Origin: an uncultured Gammaproteobacteria bacterium
Lineage (GTDB): Bacteria > Pseudomonadota > Gammaproteobacteria > DSM-19610
DNA length: 41,028 nt
Direction: 5' to 3'
NCBI GenBank assembly: GCA_964409635.1
Contig: CAYPEL010000002.1
Span: 1 to 41,028 of the forward strand
The notes under the pieces were generated by a model, which made no database searches, was not told the origin of the DNA, and saw nothing but the letters and a program-made list of their open reading frames with translations. The position numbers and the translations under genes are program-made. This document shows, piece by piece, positions 5,172-39,167 of the stretch. Every line of letters starts with the position of its first letter. Within the stretch, counting starts at the first letter, position 1.

Positions 5172-6248
5172 ATGTCTGCAGACACGCCATTGAGTGATCA
5201 GCTCGGGTTTGGCGCTGATTGGCGCGAAAGCCAGTTGTTGCTGGCCGGGATAACAGGAATTGACCAGGAGCTGGTGATTTTGCTGCACGAGCTGCTGGAT
5301 CAGGATAAACATATCCAGACCCTGGTAAACCAGTTTTACCAGTATCTTTTCGGTATTCCGCAGGCAGCGGTTGTTTTGAATAAATTTGACCGTGCGCAGC
5401 TGGAAAATGTTCAGGCCGACTTTCTAACTACATTCGGCAAGGGCTTGGCAGGTGCCGCCTATTTTGAAAACCGCATCAGGCTAGCGTTAGTGCATATGCA
5501 ATTGGATATAGCGCCGAGCCTTTACAATGCGGCCCTCAGTTATCAGCAGGGCCTATTGAATGATTTTATCATCAAGGTTGCTCGTACTAAAAAGCTTAGC
5601 CGCTCTTTGGTCGAGTTAGTTGGCAAGCTGACAGCGCTGGACATACTGATCGCAAATGAGGTCTACAAAACGGCATTTCCACAAGCCGCCGAACAGGCGC
5701 TCCGACAAGACCGTCCCAGTTACGAAACCTATGATAACCGTTTGCAGCAGGATGCCACGAGCGGTGCGGCGGGCCGTTTGACGGTTCTCAAGGCGGTTGA
5801 GTGTGGTCTTGAGACGGCGCACCGGACCGGTCAACCCCTGAGTCTGATACTGGTTGAGTTGGATACGCTTGCAACAGAGAAATCTATTGATATAGAAGCT
5901 GCACTTGAACAGATACTGCGTGAAATGGTGGTGCGCCTGAAGTCCTCAGTACGTAGTTTCGACCTTGTCGGCCGCTATGGCGCGCGCAGCTTTATTATGT
6001 TGTTGGAAAATACATCCTTGCATACCAGCCGCCAGATTGCCGAGCGGGTACGCTGCCGGATGCAGGAAAAACCGGTGCATAGTCGGCAACATGAATGGAA
6101 AATTACCGTTAGTCAGGGGATAGCAGGCGCGCTCAGCAAGGATGATCAGGACAGCCTGTTATTGCGTTGCGGCCGGGCGCTGGAACAGGCCAGATCTGCA
6201 GGAGGTAATTGCATTAAAGAGGAGACCGGTTTTGCTGCTGGGGGTTGA
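5172..6248 (+). CDS. Globin-coupled-sensor-like protein with a degenerate GGDEF domain
   Basis: The N-terminal ~160 aa resemble a protoglobin/globin-coupled sensor domain with a candidate proximal His (LALVHMQLDI). The C-terminal domain is GGDEF-like, but the active site reads GARSF (5979-5993). An RxxD motif (RSFD, 5952-5963) sits five residues upstream. Confidence 0.7.
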   Translation: MSADTPLSDQLGFGADWRESQLLLAGITGIDQELVILLHELLDQDKHIQTLVNQFYQYLFGIPQAAVVLNKFDRAQLENVQADFLTTFGKGLAGAAYFENRIRLALVHMQLDIAPSLYNAALSYQQGLLNDFIIKVARTKKLSRSLVELVGKLTALDILIANEVYKTAFPQAAEQALRQDRPSYETYDNRLQQDATSGAAGRLTVLKAVECGLETAHRTGQPLSLILVELDTLATEKSIDIEAALEQILREMVVRLKSSVRSFDLVGRYGARSFIMLLENTSLHTSRQIAERVRCRMQEKPVHSRQHEWKITVSQGIAGALSKDDQDSLLLRCGRALEQARSAGGNCIKEETGFAAGG

Positions 6249-14275: not shown

Positions 14276-14521
14276 ATGCACCCAAATACTCTGATCAGTG
14301 ACATCATTGCTGCAGCCAAATTGCAACGTATCTCCCAAGGTGAGCTGGCCAGACGGGCGGGCATTCGGCCCGAGACCCTGTCGAGGGCAAAAAGCAACCC
14401 GAATATCCGTCTGCAGACCCTGCTCGATCTCGCCGCCGTGGTTGGCTTACGTTTGAAACTCATCCCGGATCACCCGGTGGCCGAGCAGATTGACAGCGGA
14501 ACCTTGTTCCCACCGGCATGA
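14276..14521 (+). CDS. hipB: XRE-family HTH antitoxin (HipB-like)
   Basis: 81 aa with an HTH (ISQGELARRAGIRPETLSRAK). Its stop overlaps the hipA start (ATGA). Confidence 0.8.
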   Translation: MHPNTLISDIIAAAKLQRISQGELARRAGIRPETLSRAKSNPNIRLQTLLDLAAVVGLRLKLIPDHPVAEQIDSGTLFPPA

Positions 14522-15891
14522 GTACCGACCGGGAAGCGGTGGTCTGGACGCGTTTGGGTGGAACCCCGCAACGCATGGGGCGGCTTTATGTGACGGATAC
14601 GGATTGCCGTTTTACCTACGACCCGGCCTATGTCGAGACCGGCCAACCTGGACTCGGCCTGGTTTATGCCACTGAGTATTACCAGGCAAAGACGCTGTCG
14701 CGGCCGCGAAAAAAGCCGTTTGATTTGTTTCCACCGTTGCAATCGTTGATTCCTCCCGCACAGGAAGACAATTTTCAGCGCAATCTGGCGCTGAAGTATC
14801 TGGCCTCACAAGGCATCAAGGATCTCACGGGTTTCGCCGCCGATTGGGAGATCCTGAAGGCTTCGGGGCATGGCGGTATCGGCCACCTGGATCTGTTTCC
14901 TTCAGATGACAAGGCCGGTCAATGGTATAGCACAGTGCCCGCCCACCGGCTGACTGAGATCAGTGATGAACTCGGTTTTACACTCAAGGAGTTCATGACC
15001 TGGTTTGACGAAGACATCGAGATACTGATCCAGACTGTGGGTCCTACCCCGAGCGTTGGCGGCGCCATCCCGAAGCTTTTGTTGTCGATCCCGGCGTCCG
15101 GCTGGGATGGCCGTATCGGTCTGCCGACCCGTGAAACCACGCCCGGTGTCACCGATGTCGTGTTGAAGTTTGAGCAGACCACGCGCTACCCCGGCATCAT
15201 CGAACTCGAGGCCATGGCATTGGATATGCACCGCCAGGCGGGTTTTGAAACGCCGCGCTATTGGCCGTGCCAGTTCAAGGGGATGCCGGCGCTGGCGGTT
15301 GAGCGATTCGACCGTGATACAGACAATCATCCGCTGTGTATGGAAACGCTGTATTCGATCCTGGCCTCCGGTACGCTGTTACGCAATCACTATGATTACC
15401 GTTACGACCTGATTGCGGCTGCAATCGATCAATCTGCGGTGCGTATTGCCACCGATGCGGTGGCGGCCAAGGAACACCTGTTCAGCTGCCTGATCATGTC
15501 GATGCTGACCGGTAATGGAGATTTACATTTAGAGAATCTCGCCATTCTGACACGGGACACTACCCGCGCCTTCACGCCCATTTACGATCCAACGCCGATG
15601 CGTGCCTATTCACAGCACGACATGCTCAGCGTGATGCCCTTTGGTGGCTATGGTGAGTATCCTGAAGGCAGCGATAAGGCGACCTGTTTTGTCGAAGCAA
15701 TTTCACAACTGAGTAAAAGCTTTGGTCTCAGTGCGGCGCGTTTGGCTGAACTGCTTACTGGCTTGCTGGAGGCCACAAAAGACTATGAGTCGAGGGTTAA
15801 CGCGCTTGAGACCGTCCCGGATGAGAACCGGGAGCGTTTGATTAAACGCATCACGGAGGTGAGGGGGCCGTTGGTGTCGATGCTGGATTAA
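14518..15891 (+). CDS. hipA: HipA-family serine/threonine kinase toxin
   Basis: 457 aa with a HipA N-terminal coupling region, GGAIPKLLL, and catalytic loop GNGDLHLENLAIL. Confidence 0.85.
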   Translation: MSTDREAVVWTRLGGTPQRMGRLYVTDTDCRFTYDPAYVETGQPGLGLVYATEYYQAKTLSRPRKKPFDLFPPLQSLIPPAQEDNFQRNLALKYLASQGIKDLTGFAADWEILKASGHGGIGHLDLFPSDDKAGQWYSTVPAHRLTEISDELGFTLKEFMTWFDEDIEILIQTVGPTPSVGGAIPKLLLSIPASGWDGRIGLPTRETTPGVTDVVLKFEQTTRYPGIIELEAMALDMHRQAGFETPRYWPCQFKGMPALAVERFDRDTDNHPLCMETLYSILASGTLLRNHYDYRYDLIAAAIDQSAVRIATDAVAAKEHLFSCLIMSMLTGNGDLHLENLAILTRDTTRAFTPIYDPTPMRAYSQHDMLSVMPFGGYGEYPEGSDKATCFVEAISQLSKSFGLSAARLAELLTGLLEATKDYESRVNALETVPDENRERLIKRITEVRGPLVSMLD

Positions 15892-15926: not shown

Positions 15927-16042
15927 TACGTTGATTATGTGCCCCATGATTCGCAGACCCGCTGTGAATACATCCCTGTACGCTCAGCGGCAGCTTCCCT
16001 GCTGCCGATGGTCTGCAAATCATGGGGCACATAATCAACGTA
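15927..16042 (-). repeat. 116-bp palindromic structured element, copy 1 (32-bp arms, 52-nt conserved core)
   Basis: The arms 15927-15958 and 16011-16042 are reverse complements with 1 mismatch. The core 15959-16010, read on the minus strand, matches the core of the element at 34278-34329 at 42/52 positions. The strand is chosen from a G-U wobble and a GGGA tetraloop, so it is tentative. Confidence 0.8.
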
Positions 16043-29965: not shown

Positions 29966-30122
29966 TATTTAACCTGTTTGTCTGTCTTTTTATAAAAAGT
30001 GTAAGTGAGCAATACCAAAACCCTGAGCCTGGATCCTATCTCTGCAAATTTTTAGCGGCATGCGGGGCAGGTGCTTTAGTGGAATATTACGGGATTATCG
30101 TTGTAGTACAGGGATTTGCCGG

Positions 30123-30461
30123 TCAGACGCCGGTGGGTATGCCAATGCTCCCCAGAAATTGCCTGGGCTGTTCTATACGAATCAATTTGTTACGCCCCTT
30201 TGGTCCGGATAGCAGGGATATTTGCGGTTTACTCACGCCGCAGTGCCGGGCAAAAAATTTAATCAGCTGCTGATTAAATTTTTTCATCCACCGGTGGGGC
30301 GACGATGCTGACTTTCAGGCACCTCGATAATGCCCATCGATCCGATTTTGTTTGGCGTCGGCTTGGATGCGCAGACTCAGGATCAGTGCCTCGCTATCCC
30401 CGCGAAACCGGGTTGTACTCGGGTTTACAATAGTGACTGGCGTCTCTGTGAGTGTACGCAT
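30123..30461 (-). pseudogene. yggU: yggU (DUF167) disrupted by two compensating frameshifts
   Basis: The ATG overlaps the yggT stop (TAATG). Frame A gives MRTLTETPVTIVNPSTTRFRGDSEALILSLRIQADAKQNRIDGHYRGA then a stop at 30315-30317. The -1 frame gives LKVSIVAPPVDEK. The original frame then resumes with NQQLIKFFARHCGVSKPQISLLSGPKGRNKLIRIEQP. Together these match the DUF167 consensus. Confidence 0.75.
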
Positions 30462-32047: not shown

Positions 32048-33085
32048 ATGGATATCGCAGAACTACTCGCCTTTGGCGTCAAGAATAACGCCTCTGATTT
32101 ACACCTCTCAGCCGGGATGCCGCCAATGATTCGCGTCGATGGCGATATCCGCCGTGTCAATGTGCCTGCATTGGATCACAAGGCCGTGCACGGTCTGATT
32201 TATGACATCATGAACGACAAGCAGCGCAAGGATTACGAAGAGTTTCTTGAGACTGACTTTTCATTCGAAATCCCGAATCTGGCGCGCTTCCGGGTTAACG
32301 CATTTAATCATAATCGTGGCGCCGGTGGTGTATTCCGTACTATCCCCTCGACTATTCTGAGCCTCGAAGAGCTGGGTGCGCCGGGTATCTTCGCTGAAAT
32401 ATCTGATCAAGCGCGTGGTATCGTGCTGGTTACCGGACCGACCGGTTCAGGCAAGTCCACCACGCTGGCGGCGATGATGGATTATGTCAATAACTCCCGT
32501 TTTGAACATATTCTGACGGTAGAAGACCCGATAGAGTTTGTACACGAAAGTAAAAAATGCCTGATCAACCAGCGCGAAGTACACCGCGATACGCACGGTT
32601 TCAATGAGGCTTTGCGGTCAGCCTTACGTGAAGATCCAGACATTATCCTGGTCGGTGAATTGCGTGACCTGGAAACCATCCGCTTGGCGCTGACGGCTGC
32701 AGAAACCGGTCACCTGGTATTCGGCACCCTGCATACCAGTTCAGCCGCTAAAACCATCGACCGTATTATTGACGTTTTCCCGGCGGCTTAAAAGACCATG
32801 GTGCGCTCTATGCTGTCGGAATCGTTGCGCGCCGTTATATCCCAAACGTTGTTGAAAAAGGTCGGGGGTGGTCGAATCGCCGCGCACGAGATAATGATTG
32901 GTACAGCTGCAATACGTAACCTGATCCGCGAAGACAAGGTTGCGCAAATGTATTCGGCTATCCAGACTGGCGCGTCAGTGGGTATGCAGACGCTGGATCA
33001 GAATTTGCAGGAAATTGTGCAACGTGGCCTGATCAACAAGAAGGATGCGCGTACCAAAGCAGCCAATAAAGAATTATTCCGTTAA
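32048..33085 (+). pseudogene. pilT: Twitching-motility ATPase PilT interrupted by an in-frame TAA at codon 248
   Basis: The two ORFs 32048-32791 and 32798-33085 share one frame and together are collinear with full-length PilT (Walker A GPTGSGKST, His box TGHLVFGTLHT, then DVFPAA-stop-KTMVRSML...AIRNLIRE). The TAA at 32789-32791 sits where PilT proteins have Glu (GAA). Confidence 0.85.
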
Positions 33086-33100
33086 GCATAAGGCAGACGC

Positions 33101-34219
33101 ATGGATTTTAACTCCTTACTCAAACTATTGGTTCACAAAGGTGGTTCCGACCTGTTTATTACTGCAGGTATGCCACCCAGCATGAAAGTTAATGGCCGCA
33201 TTTCACCGGTTTCTCAGTCTACGTTAACTCCTGAGCAGGCTCGCGATATCGTGGTCAGTATCATGTCTGCAGATCAGCGCAAGGAATATGAAGCAGAGCA
33301 CGAATGCAATTTCGCAATCAGTGCAACCGGCGTGGGGCGCTTCCGCGTCAGTGCATTTTACCAGCGCAATCATTGCGGCATGGTATTGCGCCGTATTGAG
33401 ACGCATATTCCGACAATAGAAGATCTGAAGCTGCCGCCTATTATAAAAAATCTGGCCATGACCAAGCGCGGCCTGATTATTTTTGTCGGTGCTACCGGCA
33501 CCGGTAAGTCCACCTCGCTTGCCTCCATGATTAGCTATCGAAATCAGAATAGCACCGGGCACATTATTACCATCGAAGACCCCATCGAATTCGTGCATCA
33601 ACATGCGGGCTGCATTATTACCCAGCGAGAAGTCGGTATTGATACTGAGAGCTTCGATGTGGCGTTGAAAAATACCCTCCGCCAGGCGCCCGATGTGATA
33701 CTGATCGGCGAAGTTCGTACCCGTGAAACCATGGATCACGCGATTGCCTTCGCTGAAACCGGGCACCTGTGTCTTGCAACACTGCATGCCAATAATGCTA
33801 ACCAGGCAATGGACCGCATCGTCAACTTTTTCCCGGAAGACCGCCGGGATCAGTTGCTGATGGACTTGTCGCTTAACTTGAAAGCCATTCTTGCTCAGCA
33901 GTTACTGCCGGCACCGGATGGTAAAAGCCGCCGGGCGGCGGTAGAAATCCTGATCAATACTCCGCTGGCATCGGATCTCATCCGTAAGGGTGAAGTCCAC
34001 GAATTGAAAGAACTGATGAAACGTTCTAATCAGCAGGGCATGAAGACCTTCGATCAGGCTTTGTACGAACTCTACAAAGCCAACGAAATTACCTACGATG
34101 ACGCGATTCACTATGCGGACTCAGAGAATGAAATACGCTTGCTGGTTAAACTCAAGGATACCGACGTGGCCAATTCCAAGGCACTGGACGGTATTACGCT
34201 AGTGGAAACGCCGGATTGA
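33101..34219 (+). CDS. pilU: PilT-paralogous type IV pilus ATPase PilU
   Basis: 372 aa with Walker A GATGTGKST and ETGHLCLATLHA. It occupies the usual position after pilT. Confidence 0.9.
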   Translation: MDFNSLLKLLVHKGGSDLFITAGMPPSMKVNGRISPVSQSTLTPEQARDIVVSIMSADQRKEYEAEHECNFAISATGVGRFRVSAFYQRNHCGMVLRRIETHIPTIEDLKLPPIIKNLAMTKRGLIIFVGATGTGKSTSLASMISYRNQNSTGHIITIEDPIEFVHQHAGCIITQREVGIDTESFDVALKNTLRQAPDVILIGEVRTRETMDHAIAFAETGHLCLATLHANNANQAMDRIVNFFPEDRRDQLLMDLSLNLKAILAQQLLPAPDGKSRRAAVEILINTPLASDLIRKGEVHELKELMKRSNQQGMKTFDQALYELYKANEITYDDAIHYADSENEIRLLVKLKDTDVANSKALDGITLVETPD

Positions 34220-34245: not shown

Positions 34246-34361
34246 GTACGCCAGTTAGCCGGCCAGCTTTTCGTGACCGTTGGCAGCATGGAAGCTGCCA
34301 TCGAGCGCACAGGGATGTGTTTACAGCGAGTCACGAAAAGCTGGCCGGCTAACTGGCGTAC
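34246..34361 (+). repeat. 116-bp palindromic structured element, copy 2 (perfect 32-bp arms, 52-nt conserved core)
   Basis: 34246-34277 is the exact reverse complement of 34330-34361. The core 34278-34329 matches the minus strand of 15959-16010 at 42/52 positions. The right arm abuts the stop codon of the PyrK-like gene. Confidence 0.8.
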
Positions 34362-35240
34362 TCACTGGGCTGTATATATCGCACTGGCTTCAAAAACGGG
34401 TCCGTCAACGCAAACGCGTTGCATCGCGGGCCCGTTTTTCGTTGCTACTTCTACCACGCAGCCGGCACAGCCACCCACAGCGCAGGCCATGTACTCTTCC
34501 AATGAAACCTGGCAGGGTAAATTAAATTCATCCGCCATTGCTGCGCAAGCGCTCAACATGGCGTGCGGGCCGCATGCATAGACTGCGACTTCCCGGCGTT
34601 GAGCCGCGTTGAGTGAAGCCAACCAATGCCGTGCGAGGTCAGTAATGTAGCCGTCAAAGCAGCCGGGATAATTCTGTAGGCTGGCGAGCCGGCTGGGAAT
34701 TTTCCAGTCTTCCATAAGTGGCATGGCCGCTATGGTGCCATCCGGCAAACCGGGTACGATGATTTTTGAAGGTTGTATGGTAAAGGGAAATGGAACTTCG
34801 GAACCCATGAGTAGCAGTGGTTGGCAGGTGCTGTCATTTCTTAACTGCTCAGCTAAAAATACCATCGGTGGAATACCTACACCGCCGCCGAGCAGCAAAG
34901 CTCGTGGCCGCTGTGGATCAACTTTGAACGGTATCCCGATGGGTCCGAGCATACTCAAATGTTCGTCCGGCTTGCGTTGCGCCAACAGCCGGGTACCTTT
35001 GCCGACTGATTTGTATAAAAAATCGACCCAGCCAGCCTCTGGATTCACGCGCATTATCGAAAGCGGCCGGCGCATGGGGAGTGCGGGATCACACTGTAAA
35101 TGGACAAACTGCCCGGCCTTTGCGAATGACGCGCACTTGGCTGCGTTAACGCGCAGGATAAACTGATCACCTGAAAAAGCCATATGGCTGATGATGCGTG
35201 CCTGTTCCAGGTGAATGGTGCCGCGATGTACCCGCTTCAT
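34362..35240 (-). CDS. PyrK-like flavoprotein (dihydroorotate dehydrogenase electron-transfer subunit family)
   Basis: FAD motif RRPLSI, NAD motif LLGGGVGIPP, and C-terminal 2Fe-2S motif CAVGGCAGC...CVDGPVF. The ATG at 35240 overlaps the pyrC' stop (ATGA). Confidence 0.8.
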   Translation of the reverse strand: MKRVHRGTIHLEQARIISHMAFSGDQFILRVNAAKCASFAKAGQFVHLQCDPALPMRRPLSIMRVNPEAGWVDFLYKSVGKGTRLLAQRKPDEHLSMLGPIGIPFKVDPQRPRALLLGGGVGIPPMVFLAEQLRNDSTCQPLLLMGSEVPFPFTIQPSKIIVPGLPDGTIAAMPLMEDWKIPSRLASLQNYPGCFDGYITDLARHWLASLNAAQRREVAVYACGPHAMLSACAAMADEFNLPCQVSLEEYMACAVGGCAGCVVEVATKNGPAMQRVCVDGPVFEASAIYTAQ

Positions 35241-36541
35241 GTGTTGGCGGGTGCGGTATAAATTATTTTGCCATCCCGCAGGGTATAGCGTACCCGGCCG
35301 GTCATTTCCCAACCTAAGAACGGTGTGTTTTTACCGCGGCTGTTGATGCGTTCCTGTTTCAGTTGCCAGGTTTCTTTAGGGTCAAAAATACAAATGTCTG
35401 CGGTCGCGCCCTTGGTCAACTGACCGTACGGGATATTCAAAATGGATGCCGGTCCGCAGGTTAAGCGGGCAACAAGATCCACGAGATCCAGGCAATTTTC
35501 ATCGACCAGGCGCAGCGCCAGCGGTAACAAACTGTCGAGACCGGAAACACCTGGTTCAGTCGCCGGAAAGGGCGCCAGTTTTGCATCTGGCTCGTGTGGC
35601 TGGTGGTCTGAACATAATGCTGCCAGGTCTGCGTTGCCGAGGCCGGCGCGCAGGCCATCTCTATCAGTTTGGGAGCGCAAGGGTGGCAAGAGGTGGTAGT
35701 TGGGGTCAAATTCGCCGGCATCGAGGTCGGTCAGAAAGAGATAAGGGATCGCTACATCCGCAGTGACAGGTGCACCATCATAGCGTGCCCGGGCGACCAT
35801 GCGCACAGCGCGCTGGGTTGTCAGGCGGCAGAAGTGTGCCCGTGCGCCGGTTTGTTCTATCAGCTCCAGGTCGCGGGCGACGGCTACTGTTTCTGCGGCT
35901 TCCGGAATGCCGGGTAAGCCTAGCCGGGTAGATACCCGGCCCTCATGGATGCAGCCATTGGCTGACAGCGCGTGGTCATTGGGACAAAGGAATACGGTGA
36001 GCCCAAAAGTGGACGCGTATTCGAAGGTGCGGCGTGCCACCAGCGTTGACAGCAGTGGTTTTCCGGCATTGCTGACACCGACACAACCGGCTGCTTTGAG
36101 TGCCGCCATTTCACTCAGGTGTTCACCGTTCAGGCCTTGGGTGAGTGCACCGAGTGACAAAACACGCGCCGCACCGGCCAGTTTTGAACGGTGTCTGATT
36201 AGCTCTATAACCGCCGGTGTGTCGATAACCGGATGGGTGTCTGGTGGGCAGACCAGGGTGGTGATGCCTGCAGCGGCGGCAGCCCGGCATTCGCTGTCTA
36301 TGGTTGCCTTATGTTCCTGCCCGGGTTCCCGGGTGCGCGCGCAAAGATCAATCAAACCGGGTATCACCACCAGTCCAGCTGCATCGATGGTGTGGTCAAT
36401 CCGGAAAGCATCGGGTGGATCGGCGATGCCGGCCACCCGGCCATCGGCGATAAACAGGTCGGTTATCCGGTCAATATTATCGACCGGGTCGATGAACCGT
36501 CCGCCCTGTATTTTAATTTGGCTGGCGTTCTGTTCGGCCAT
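35237..36541 (-). CDS. pyrC': Dihydroorotase-like non-catalytic protein (PyrC')
   Basis: 434 aa with an amidohydrolase fold. The metal-binding DxHxH motif is replaced by DLCAR (GLIDLCARTREPG). It sits directly after pyrB, as in Pseudomonas. Confidence 0.85.
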   Translation of the reverse strand: MAEQNASQIKIQGGRFIDPVDNIDRITDLFIADGRVAGIADPPDAFRIDHTIDAAGLVVIPGLIDLCARTREPGQEHKATIDSECRAAAAAGITTLVCPPDTHPVIDTPAVIELIRHRSKLAGAARVLSLGALTQGLNGEHLSEMAALKAAGCVGVSNAGKPLLSTLVARRTFEYASTFGLTVFLCPNDHALSANGCIHEGRVSTRLGLPGIPEAAETVAVARDLELIEQTGARAHFCRLTTQRAVRMVARARYDGAPVTADVAIPYLFLTDLDAGEFDPNYHLLPPLRSQTDRDGLRAGLGNADLAALCSDHQPHEPDAKLAPFPATEPGVSGLDSLLPLALRLVDENCLDLVDLVARLTCGPASILNIPYGQLTKGATADICIFDPKETWQLKQERINSRGKNTPFLGWEMTGRVRYTLRDGKIIYTAPANT

Positions 36542-38987: not shown

Positions 38988-39109
38988 GGGGATAGTATCC
39001 GGTAGACCGGGGCTTGATTCAAGCGCTACGAAATATAGATCAGCCAGATAAATATAGTTAAGGCACCATTGATTTATTCGTGTATCTTGTTTTTACCAAT
39101 GATGTTGAC

Positions 39110-39141
39110 CCGGTAGGAGCGGTTAAAACCGCTCCTACCGG
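39110..39141 (-). terminator. Perfect 15-bp stem hairpin downstream of the tonB-like gene
   Basis: CCGGTAGGAGCGGTT-AA-AACCGCTCCTACCGG lies 27 nt after the stop at 39168. No clear U-tract is present on the minus strand. Confidence 0.35.
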
Positions 39142-39167
39142 TCTTAATCAAGACCTGTCCTGGCAGA

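Follow-up and report, generated by a model that had tools for sequence, protein, structure and literature searches.

A hairpin element between pilU and a PyrK-like gene in a relative of Thiogranum: a likely mobile member of the YPAL/Ysr224 repeats with CsrA-type loops

The DNA analysed here (the window, a stretch of 41,028 nucleotides (nt)) belongs to an uncultured gammaproteobacterium related to Thiogranum. Between two convergent genes of this window, pilU and a PyrK-like gene, lies a 116-bp palindromic element (34246-34361, hereafter copy 2); a second element of the same family, copy 1, lies near radC (Table 1). The arms of copy 2 are reverse-complementary at 32 of 32 positions and enclose a 52-nt core, in which both sub-hairpins announced by the original prediction, TGGCAGC-ATGGAA-GCTGCCA and CACA-GGGA-TGTG, are present; the first exposes GGA in its loop (ATGGAA, 34288-34293), on what we call the GGA strand. 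The folding energy of the element is -88.3 kcal/mol on the plus strand and -84.5 kcal/mol on the minus strand, with z-scores of -11.7 and -12.2, respectively, against dinucleotide shuffles, and the arm does not recur in the window at three mismatches or fewer (0 occurrences expected). Between the pilU stop codon (34217-34219) and the element lie 26 nt, and the other end of the element is, as had been described, the base preceding the PyrK-like stop codon (34362-34364); the recorded PyrK-like product (P0001, 292 amino acids, 100% identity) uses this very stop codon, and the junction reads TGA, 116-nt element, 26 nt, TCA. Looked up as exact proteins, the PilU and the PyrK ORF of the window had no record. 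After the hairpin, the minus strand reads GGTTTTAC, which also agrees with the first description. The core of copy 2 is homologous, in inverse orientation, to that of copy 1 (15959-16010), over 58 nt at 83% identity (15956-16013 versus 34275-34332), and the arms of copy 1 pair at 32 of 33 positions. The two copies had been thought to be inverted relative to the flanking transcription, but both lie between convergent genes in the same configuration, each just downstream of the gene carried by its GGA strand (pilU for copy 2, radC for copy 1).

Table 1. Coordinates of the two elements, of the parts of copy 2 and of the genes flanking it
Feature	Position in the window	Strand	Remarks
P1 5' arm, copy 2	34246..34277	+	32/32 complementary to 34330-34361; the GGA-sense strand is +
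Hairpin 1, copy 2	34278..34303	+	stem CG.TGGCAGC / GCTGCCA.CG; columns 31-56 of alignment A1
Hairpin 2, copy 2	34305..34327	+	lower pairs GC/GC; upper stem CACA/TGTG; loop GGGA 34312-34315
P1 3' arm, copy 2	34330..34361	+	pairs with 34246-34277; adjoins the PyrK-like stop codon
Copy 1, sister of the same family	15927..16042	- (GGA-sense)	111.7 bits with covariance model R1; 128 nt downstream of radC
pilU (PilT/PilU-family ATPase)	33101..34219	+	TIGR01420, 451.7 bits; synteny kept in relatives
PyrK-like dihydroorotate dehydrogenase electron-transfer subunit	34362..35312	-	converges on pilU; stop codon abuts the element

A degenerate pattern for the right half of the core (GAGCGNACANGGATGTNTTNACAG), scanned against a collection of species-representative genomes, returned at least 119 matching loci in Marinobacter, Microbulbifer, Sedimenticola, Thiogranum, Tenderia, Cellvibrio, Catenovulum, Pectobacterium, Morganella and others; further hosts are metagenome-assembled genomes (MAGs) of Lysobacterales, Legionellales and Competibacteraceae. 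Of the 117 usable matches listed, 76 are flanked by inverted repeats of 20 bp or more without gaps (median 29 bp). The sequences of these repeats are unrelated between loci. The stem formed by the arms (P1) varies in sequence but keeps its pairing, and the nearest open reading frame (ORF) lies at a median distance of 41 nt. We aligned 43 equal-length members without gaps (alignment A1), pairing in P1 being one of the criteria that admitted sequences and pairing in hairpin 1 not. On A1, RNAalifold predicts a P1 of about 30 bp (the 5' arm of copy 2 corresponding to columns 2-30), hairpin 1 with a loop A-N-GGA-Y (columns 31-56), a short helix joining columns 58-59 to 79-80, and hairpin 2 with a loop N-GGA (columns 60-73). 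Two-sided changes that retain pairing are found at 37 of the 45 predicted pairs; compensatory changes affect all 29 pairs of P1 across the 43 members, and 7 of the 9 pairs of hairpin 1 covary. Copy 2 itself provides such a change, since C61-G72 in its hairpin 2 substitutes for the U-A pair of the family. Overall, 95.4% of the A1 cells are paired, versus 60.8% after shuffling and 33-43% with slid partners. At the tip, members of the family share a conserved three-way junction, from which two CA-N-GGA-N-G loops project at a distance of 23-24 nt.

The covariance model built from A1 (R1) recognizes only two copies in the window, both on the GGA strand, with 116.7 bits for copy 2 (copy 1, Table 1); the opposite strand reaches 38.6 and 34.2 bits, from the stem alone. 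In the loci that we fetched, R1 gave 142 + 28 + 1 matches, often three to six per 8 kb and in either orientation, and pattern and model together amount to at least ~170 copies in more than 100 gammaproteobacterial genomes. Once the copies that had brought the loci in are removed, about one extra copy remains per 20 kb of fetched locus, to be set beside two per 41 kb in the window; extrapolated from the fetched loci, this corresponds to a few hundred (roughly 200) copies per genome. The core has no match in 5,426 E. coli genomes, the locus has none in E. coli genomes either, and the mobile-element collections to which the original prediction had looked (plasmids, phages and viral contigs) hold no match. 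The resemblance between the two window cores persists as copies are added, the core being kept across the ~170, which upholds the view of a genuine conserved structured element, and we regard it as very probable that copy 2 is a member of this family and is structured at the RNA level.

Several observations concern the family at large. Its core is found in the supplement of PMC2864571, in the flanks of other motif alignments from Shewanella NC_008322, NC_009831 and NC_009997 (for example GACCGUUGGAGACAUGGAUGUCGCCGUCGAGCCUAUAGGGAUAUAUUCACGGCGAGUC), so the family is present in Shewanella too. Two contigs labelled 'MAG: Klebsiella pneumoniae' carry members (L054, CAMBTO010000005; L062, CAMBTO010000040), the first together with a pyrK 74% identical in DNA to that of the window; because the core is unmatched in the E. 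coli genomes, these contigs are probably mis-binned. Variants of 150-165 nt (L028:5440-5602, L068:3168-3331, L079:7010-7163, L023:2049-2211) have the tip of hairpin 1 replaced by a branched insert with one or two extra GGA-loop hairpins, which brings the CA.GGA.G motifs of an element to as many as three. Of the neighbouring copies separated by fewer than 400 nt, 18 pairs are inverted and 5 direct (for example L094:7312-7640, L106:2624-2883, L050:3453-4069, L114:500-827). Several neighbours arranged (-,+) sit between divergent genes; the excess of (-,+) over (+,-) among adjacent copies (13 versus 5, p = 0.10) is not significant.

The element had been presented as novel, but the same core occupies the centre of a published repeat. 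YPAL of De Gregorio et al. 2006 is RU-2, whose 168-nt Y. pestis sequence is printed in Delihas 2007 (PMC2759123), and the centre of RU-2 is the core of our family, in the order GCG, stem, AAGGAU, stem, CUCGAGCC-UACAUGGAUGUA-UUUACGGCG; the YPAL core motif GAGC-N-UACA-N-GGAUGUA-UUYAC-R-GCG, which follows the GGA-loop hairpin, is present in the window element. The Pectobacterium loci recovered by the pattern are 76-88% identical to RU-2 over 97-130 nt, and one of them (L025) scores 101 bits (cutoff 70) on Rfam RF02770, Ysr224, a multi-copy, temperature-responsive family of Yersinia small RNAs (sRNAs) whose copies are expressed differently. [quoted passage not shown] The review PMC2229807 describes YPAL as abundant and intergenic, with internal inverted repeats and target duplications of 3-26 bp, inserted at or adjoining sites of dyad symmetry, recently mobile as judged from empty and filled sites, and co-transcribed with upstream genes whose stability it may affect; a systematic survey puts the number of copies in Y. 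pestis at 101. The window copies share with YPAL/RU-2 the long hairpin, the multi-copy, intergenic distribution near stop codons and the filled and empty sites. They differ in their length (~116-122 bp versus ~168 bp for RU-2), in the absence of the non-palindromic termini of YPAL and in their host, which is not an enterobacterium. They align to RU-2 over only the 28-33 nt of the core (82% identity), the arms being unrelated, and score below the RF02770 cutoff of 70 (copy 2, 21.7 bits; copy 1, 17.3-18.7 bits), on the strand opposite the GGA loops.

A second relative is the TwoAYGGAY motif (RF01731; Weinberg et al. 2010), whose P1 is often very large according to the Weinberg supplement, as is that of copy 2 (32 bp), and which likewise has two hairpins with A-N-GGA-Y loops and multiple gammaproteobacterial copies; the second hairpin of its multi-copy Psychromonas seed members reads UACAGGGAUGUA. 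Copy 1 scores 32.9 bits on RF01731 (E = 8e-4, cutoff 43); copy 2 was not reported and none of 18 other family loci reached the threshold. The window copies depart from TwoAYGGAY in the sequence of the junction and in the helices that surround hairpin 2. The loops of the window copies (AUGGAA and AGGGAU in copy 2, AGGGAA and AGGGAU in copy 1) keep the GGA and the flanking A but not the Y positions, and AUGGAU or AUGGAC loops occur in many family members. This resemblance could reflect homology or convergence on the optimum for CsrA. TwoAYGGAY has been proposed to bind CsrA, as a CsrA-sequestering sRNA, by Gardner and Eldai (PMC4333381); the motif was still called 'relatively unexplored' in the 2025 literature.

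Two further classes of known elements invite comparison. [quoted passage not shown] The promoters of CsrB-type sRNAs depend on GacA/UvrY. REP/BIME, ERIC and other MITEs that serve as 3'UTR hairpins are likewise dispersed intergenic palindromes, co-transcribed with their neighbours and able to change mRNA stability; in these families, however, the arms (REP units or terminal inverted repeats) are conserved and the centre varies, whereas the window element belongs to a family that conserves its centre on a largely hypervariable stem. The whole window has no match in Rfam at gathering thresholds, and the microRNA families (mir-341, MIR2950 and others) that surface in E-value mode owe their matches to the long hairpin alone and were disregarded. 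The element does not, then, represent a new kind; we place it in the YPAL/Ysr224 repeat superfamily, as a shorter, divergent variant whose architecture is TwoAYGGAY-like. In the literature that we searched, we found no paper that ties YPAL/RU-2, Ysr224 and TwoAYGGAY together, and none that ties CsrA to a dispersed repeat.

We compared both window loci with those of related genomes. In the closest syntenic relatives (PyrK ~80% identical), pyrB-pyrC-pyrK converge on pilU-pilT as in the window, and the pilU-pyr junction is empty. In L120 and L121 the stop codons of pyrK and pilU overlap (TTAA), with no element; in L122 they are 23 nt apart, with no hairpin; and R1 finds no match at any of these three junctions. 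Thus, the element is an insertion in the lineage of the window, and this comparison of sequences makes it probable that the insertion was a mobile one. Like a MITE, it is small (<300 bp), non-coding, multi-copy, bounded by terminal inverted repeats and polymorphic in presence and absence. At the radC locus, the relative L127 (RadC 88% identical) has an element 75 nt after radC. Its core equals that of copy 1 at 51 of 52 positions but points the other way with respect to radC; the inner arms match at 12 of 15 positions and the outer arms are unrelated. The radC junctions of L131, L132 and L133 have no element. We considered an inversion of the core in situ, but the flipped counterparts of the two window copies, in L127 and L054, share only one flank each with the window, and recurrent independent insertion fits equally well.

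Two side observations were made around radC. Firstly, the window carries between radC and rpmB-rpmG a gene for a HipB-like helix-turn-helix protein (81 amino acids, HTH_3) and one for a HipA_C kinase (457 amino acids), at 14276-15891 (+); in L127, L132 and L133 rpmB-rpmG directly follow radC, so that a hipBA-type toxin-antitoxin module has been inserted in the window, with copy 1 at its radC junction. Secondly, the short radC contigs L128, L129 and L130 end inside the 5' arm of the element or ~20 nt past the radC stop codon, which suggests that repeats of this family break short-read assemblies.

The loops themselves resemble binding sites of CsrA, for which systematic evolution of ligands by exponential enrichment (SELEX) gave the consensus RUACARGGAUGU, in which ACA and GGA do not vary and the GGA sits in the loop of a hairpin (PMC4347634). 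Hairpin 2 of copy 2 (34307-34318; GCACAGGGATGT; GCACAGGGAUGU) matches this consensus at 11 of 12 positions, the sole change being compensated across the stem, and hairpin 2 of copy 1 (GTACAGGGATGT; GUACAGGGAUGU) matches it at 12 of 12. The consensus pattern has four matches in the window for 0.34 expected; the other two lie outside the elements, with one mismatch each (30106-30117 (+), GTACAGGGATTT; 6012-6023 (-), ATGCAAGGATGT). The loop of hairpin 1 is CA-N-GGA-N-G in most family members. Two CA.GGA.G motifs are kept, on covarying stems and at a spacing of 23-24 nt, in 26 of the 35 members that had not been chosen by the pattern, whereas shuffled elements average 0.04 such motifs and the other strand has none. 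In copy 2 the two GGA-loop motifs are 23 nt apart; CsrA/RsmA-binding RNAs likewise have two or more GGA sites in hairpin loops that match RUACARGGAUGU / CANGGANG. The window holds no csrA gene. From the fit of the loops, we tentatively name CsrA/RsmA as the ligand, a proposal that falls somewhat short of being probable.

The mismatches in the stems carry strand information, as G·U, A·C and other mismatches were scored alike when the arms were sought. Read on the GGA strand, the non-Watson-Crick pairs in the arms of the listed pattern matches comprise 65 G·U and 16 A·C (p = 4e-8), and those of a larger set 89 and 25. The counts are 40 versus 6 where the upstream gene is on the GGA strand, 21 versus 1 at convergent sites, and 25 versus 13 where the upstream gene is on the other strand. 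Taken with the one-strand occurrence of CA-N-GGA-N-G, this bias in the sequences argues for selection on a GGA-sense RNA, mainly as the 3' untranslated region (3'UTR) of the upstream gene, and thus points to the transcript of the GGA-loop strand as the apparent object of selection.

The best explanation overall, which we hold to be reasonably likely, is a mobile, YPAL-related RNA hairpin with CsrA-type loops. The GGA-sense element would be co-transcribed with its upstream gene (pilU for copy 2, radC for copy 1) as part of the 3'UTR. The RNA would fold into the 32-bp hairpin capped by the three-way junction, on which the two CA-N-GGA-N-G loops would be displayed as a high-affinity, two-site target for a single CsrA/RsmA dimer. 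The long stem may act as a structural barrier at the 3' end and, as reported for YPAL, change how stable the upstream mRNA is; binding of CsrA may either place the host transcript under Csr/Rsm control or titrate CsrA, summed over the ~200 extrapolated copies. A bolder version, which we think unlikely, has the dispersed copies plant high-affinity CsrA sites in 3'UTRs genome-wide and makes the family a distributed CsrA/RsmA sponge, a transposable element that would rewire and buffer a global post-transcriptional regulon, with a stem that would be renewed by a DNA-level process much faster than the core and with the same loci occupied in either orientation in related lineages.

Several points weigh against the mobile RNA hairpin. 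Gene orientation around the elements shows little preference (+E- 21, -E- 16, +E+ 16, -E+ 10), so that many copies would not be read GGA-sense by the nearest gene unless they have a promoter of their own, and no sigma-70-like promoter lies beside the window copies. Stems that are 95% Watson-Crick, with few G·U pairs, resemble a DNA palindrome more than an RNA helix of great age. In Rfam, the Ysr224 model describes the strand that does not carry the GGA loops, and the window copies fall below the gathering thresholds of both RF02770 and RF01731. Pairing in P1 had served to select the sequences of A1. The number of copies per genome was extrapolated from the loci that we fetched. Neither window copy has a visible target-site duplication: no direct repeat flanks them, and the relatives (~80% protein identity) are too divergent for the target to be reconstructed.

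Some of these points would be expected of a purely DNA-level palindromic repeat of the REP or MITE type, in which a transposase or DNA-binding protein recognizes the hairpin or cruciform together with the core and the RNA structure is incidental. Such a repeat would be, as here, high in copy number, clustered, present in both orientations with no strong preference relative to genes, and found at filled and empty sites; YPAL is classed as a MITE in the literature. The arms fit this too, being 95% Watson-Crick and perfect in 30% of the listed members. The outer arm of copy 2 contains a box, CGCCAGTTAGCCG (CG(C/G)CAGTTAGCCG), that is conserved like a terminal inverted repeat between the window, L009 (a Thiogranum MAG) and L125 (a metagenome contig). 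L009 and L125 are loci unrelated to that of the window and differ in the middle of the stem, so that the whole hairpin travels or is inherited as a unit. L009 had been considered as an orthologous locus, its arms resembling those of copy 2, but it is not syntenic. Of the loci that a metagenome scan for the box brought up, L125 is a true member, whereas L124 and L126 match by chance, about as often as expected. Semi-conserved positions also exist within the stems of A1 (G13-C100 in 27 of 43 members, TT at columns 22-23, GAC at columns 28-30); these positions and the recurrence of the outer box at unrelated loci of other organisms led us to reject the idea that the arms are inverted copies of local target DNA.

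The turnover of the arms likewise suggests events at the DNA level. In 10-14 pairs of copies compared, hairpin-1 stems are 92-94% identical within a genome and 42% identical between genomes, whereas arm identity within a genome is 78-85% in the inner part and falls to 45-57% in the outer part (baseline ~30%). The arms thus diverge within a genome far more than hairpin 1, which is itself free to covary between genomes, and two alternatives follow: the cores may be homogenised inside each genome, or replacement of the arms may outpace what point mutation followed by compensation allows. A DNA-level process that renews or replaces the arms is suggested. Possible mechanisms are a gene conversion that would be confined to the core, insertion into targets with dyad symmetry, which has been reported for YPAL, and template-switch correction of quasi-palindromes. 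The MAGs JAWLHA01 (L001, L003, L056, L092, L103) and JAWLGP01 (L093, L115) depart from most genomes, in which the arms differ between copies: many of their copies have near-identical 27-bp arms (GAGCGATGTAAGTCCTTGAAAGCAGGT), as if the whole hairpin had recently been amplified in a burst. Against a repeat that acts at the DNA level only stand the excess of G·U over A·C on one strand (89 versus 25), the occurrence of CA.GGA.G twice on one strand and never on the other, and loops that fit the consensus of an RNA-binding protein; no transposase partner is seen nearby. We consider it rather unlikely, with the reservation that mobility and RNA function are compatible, so that it overlaps with the mobile RNA hairpin that we prefer.

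The element would be an sRNA gene if it formed a CsrB/RsmY-type sponge with its own promoter and terminator. The proposal made for TwoAYGGAY, the detection of Ysr224 as a temperature-responsive, multi-copy sRNA with differently expressed copies, and the three or four GGA hairpins of some members all speak for this possibility. At both window copies, however, the intrinsic terminator scan made no call, and no sigma-70-like promoter adjoins either copy; 26 nt from one stop codon and abutting another, copy 2 leaves no room for a promoter. Among the 119 listed members, at least five T in the 8-nt window after the hairpin are found in 4% on the GGA strand and 10% on the opposite strand, versus a background of 8.7%, and the G·U bias peaks where the element would be read in the sense of a 3'UTR. 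An independent sRNA gene is accordingly improbable. The same scans bear on the possibility that the element is simply an intrinsic terminator, acting in both directions on the convergent transcripts of pilU and pyr. A very stable hairpin between convergent genes, followed on the minus strand by GGUUUUAC, would suit that role, but with U-tracts at background frequency and no terminator call the element is not a canonical terminator; moreover, the GC-rich stem of an intrinsic terminator has a short loop, and a conserved, branched one of 52 nt is not a terminator feature, and the syntenic relatives have overlapping stop codons without any hairpin. The original prediction had already judged that termination alone does not explain the core, and we find a plain terminator very improbable.

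Just as improbable is a recent inverted duplication, or homogenisation of the arms, specific to this locus: the 32/32 arms, which had been read in this sense, and the absence of the element from relatives at ~80% protein identity speak for it, but fully Watson-Crick arms are ordinary in the family (23 of the 76 listed members with arms of at least 20 bp) and are no sign of recent origin, and the outer arm box at the non-syntenic L009 and L125 of other organisms indicates that the arms were inherited with the element, not copied from the window locus.

These results link three literatures, those of the YPAL/RU-2 MITEs (2006-07), of the multi-copy Ysr224 and of the orphan TwoAYGGAY motif, and extend the family to many gammaproteobacterial orders. 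If the loops do bind CsrA/RsmA, a mobile repeat spreads the sites of a global regulator, which bears on the evolution of Csr/Rsm regulons; such binding could also point to CsrA antagonists in lineages for which, to our knowledge, none has been described. For annotation, hairpins of this type should be labelled as repeat elements, not as terminators or novel sRNA genes. What keeps the element of interest is the possible connection to CsrA, the fast turnover of the stem and the fact that the same loci are occupied repeatedly, in one orientation or the other.

Two further observations concern the remainder of the window. Palindromes at 39109-39142 and 30251-30285 give weak R1 matches on both strands from stem pairing alone (17 and 12 bits) and may be ordinary terminators or REP-like hairpins. 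Upstream of pilU, pilT (32048-33085, +) contains an in-frame stop at codon 248 (32789-32791; ...DVFPAA*KTMVRSM...), which splits it into ORFs of 247 and 95 amino acids; PilT is intact, at 345 amino acids, in the syntenic relatives. Possible readings of the split are a pseudogene, a nonsense mutation at the level of the strain and an error in sequencing.

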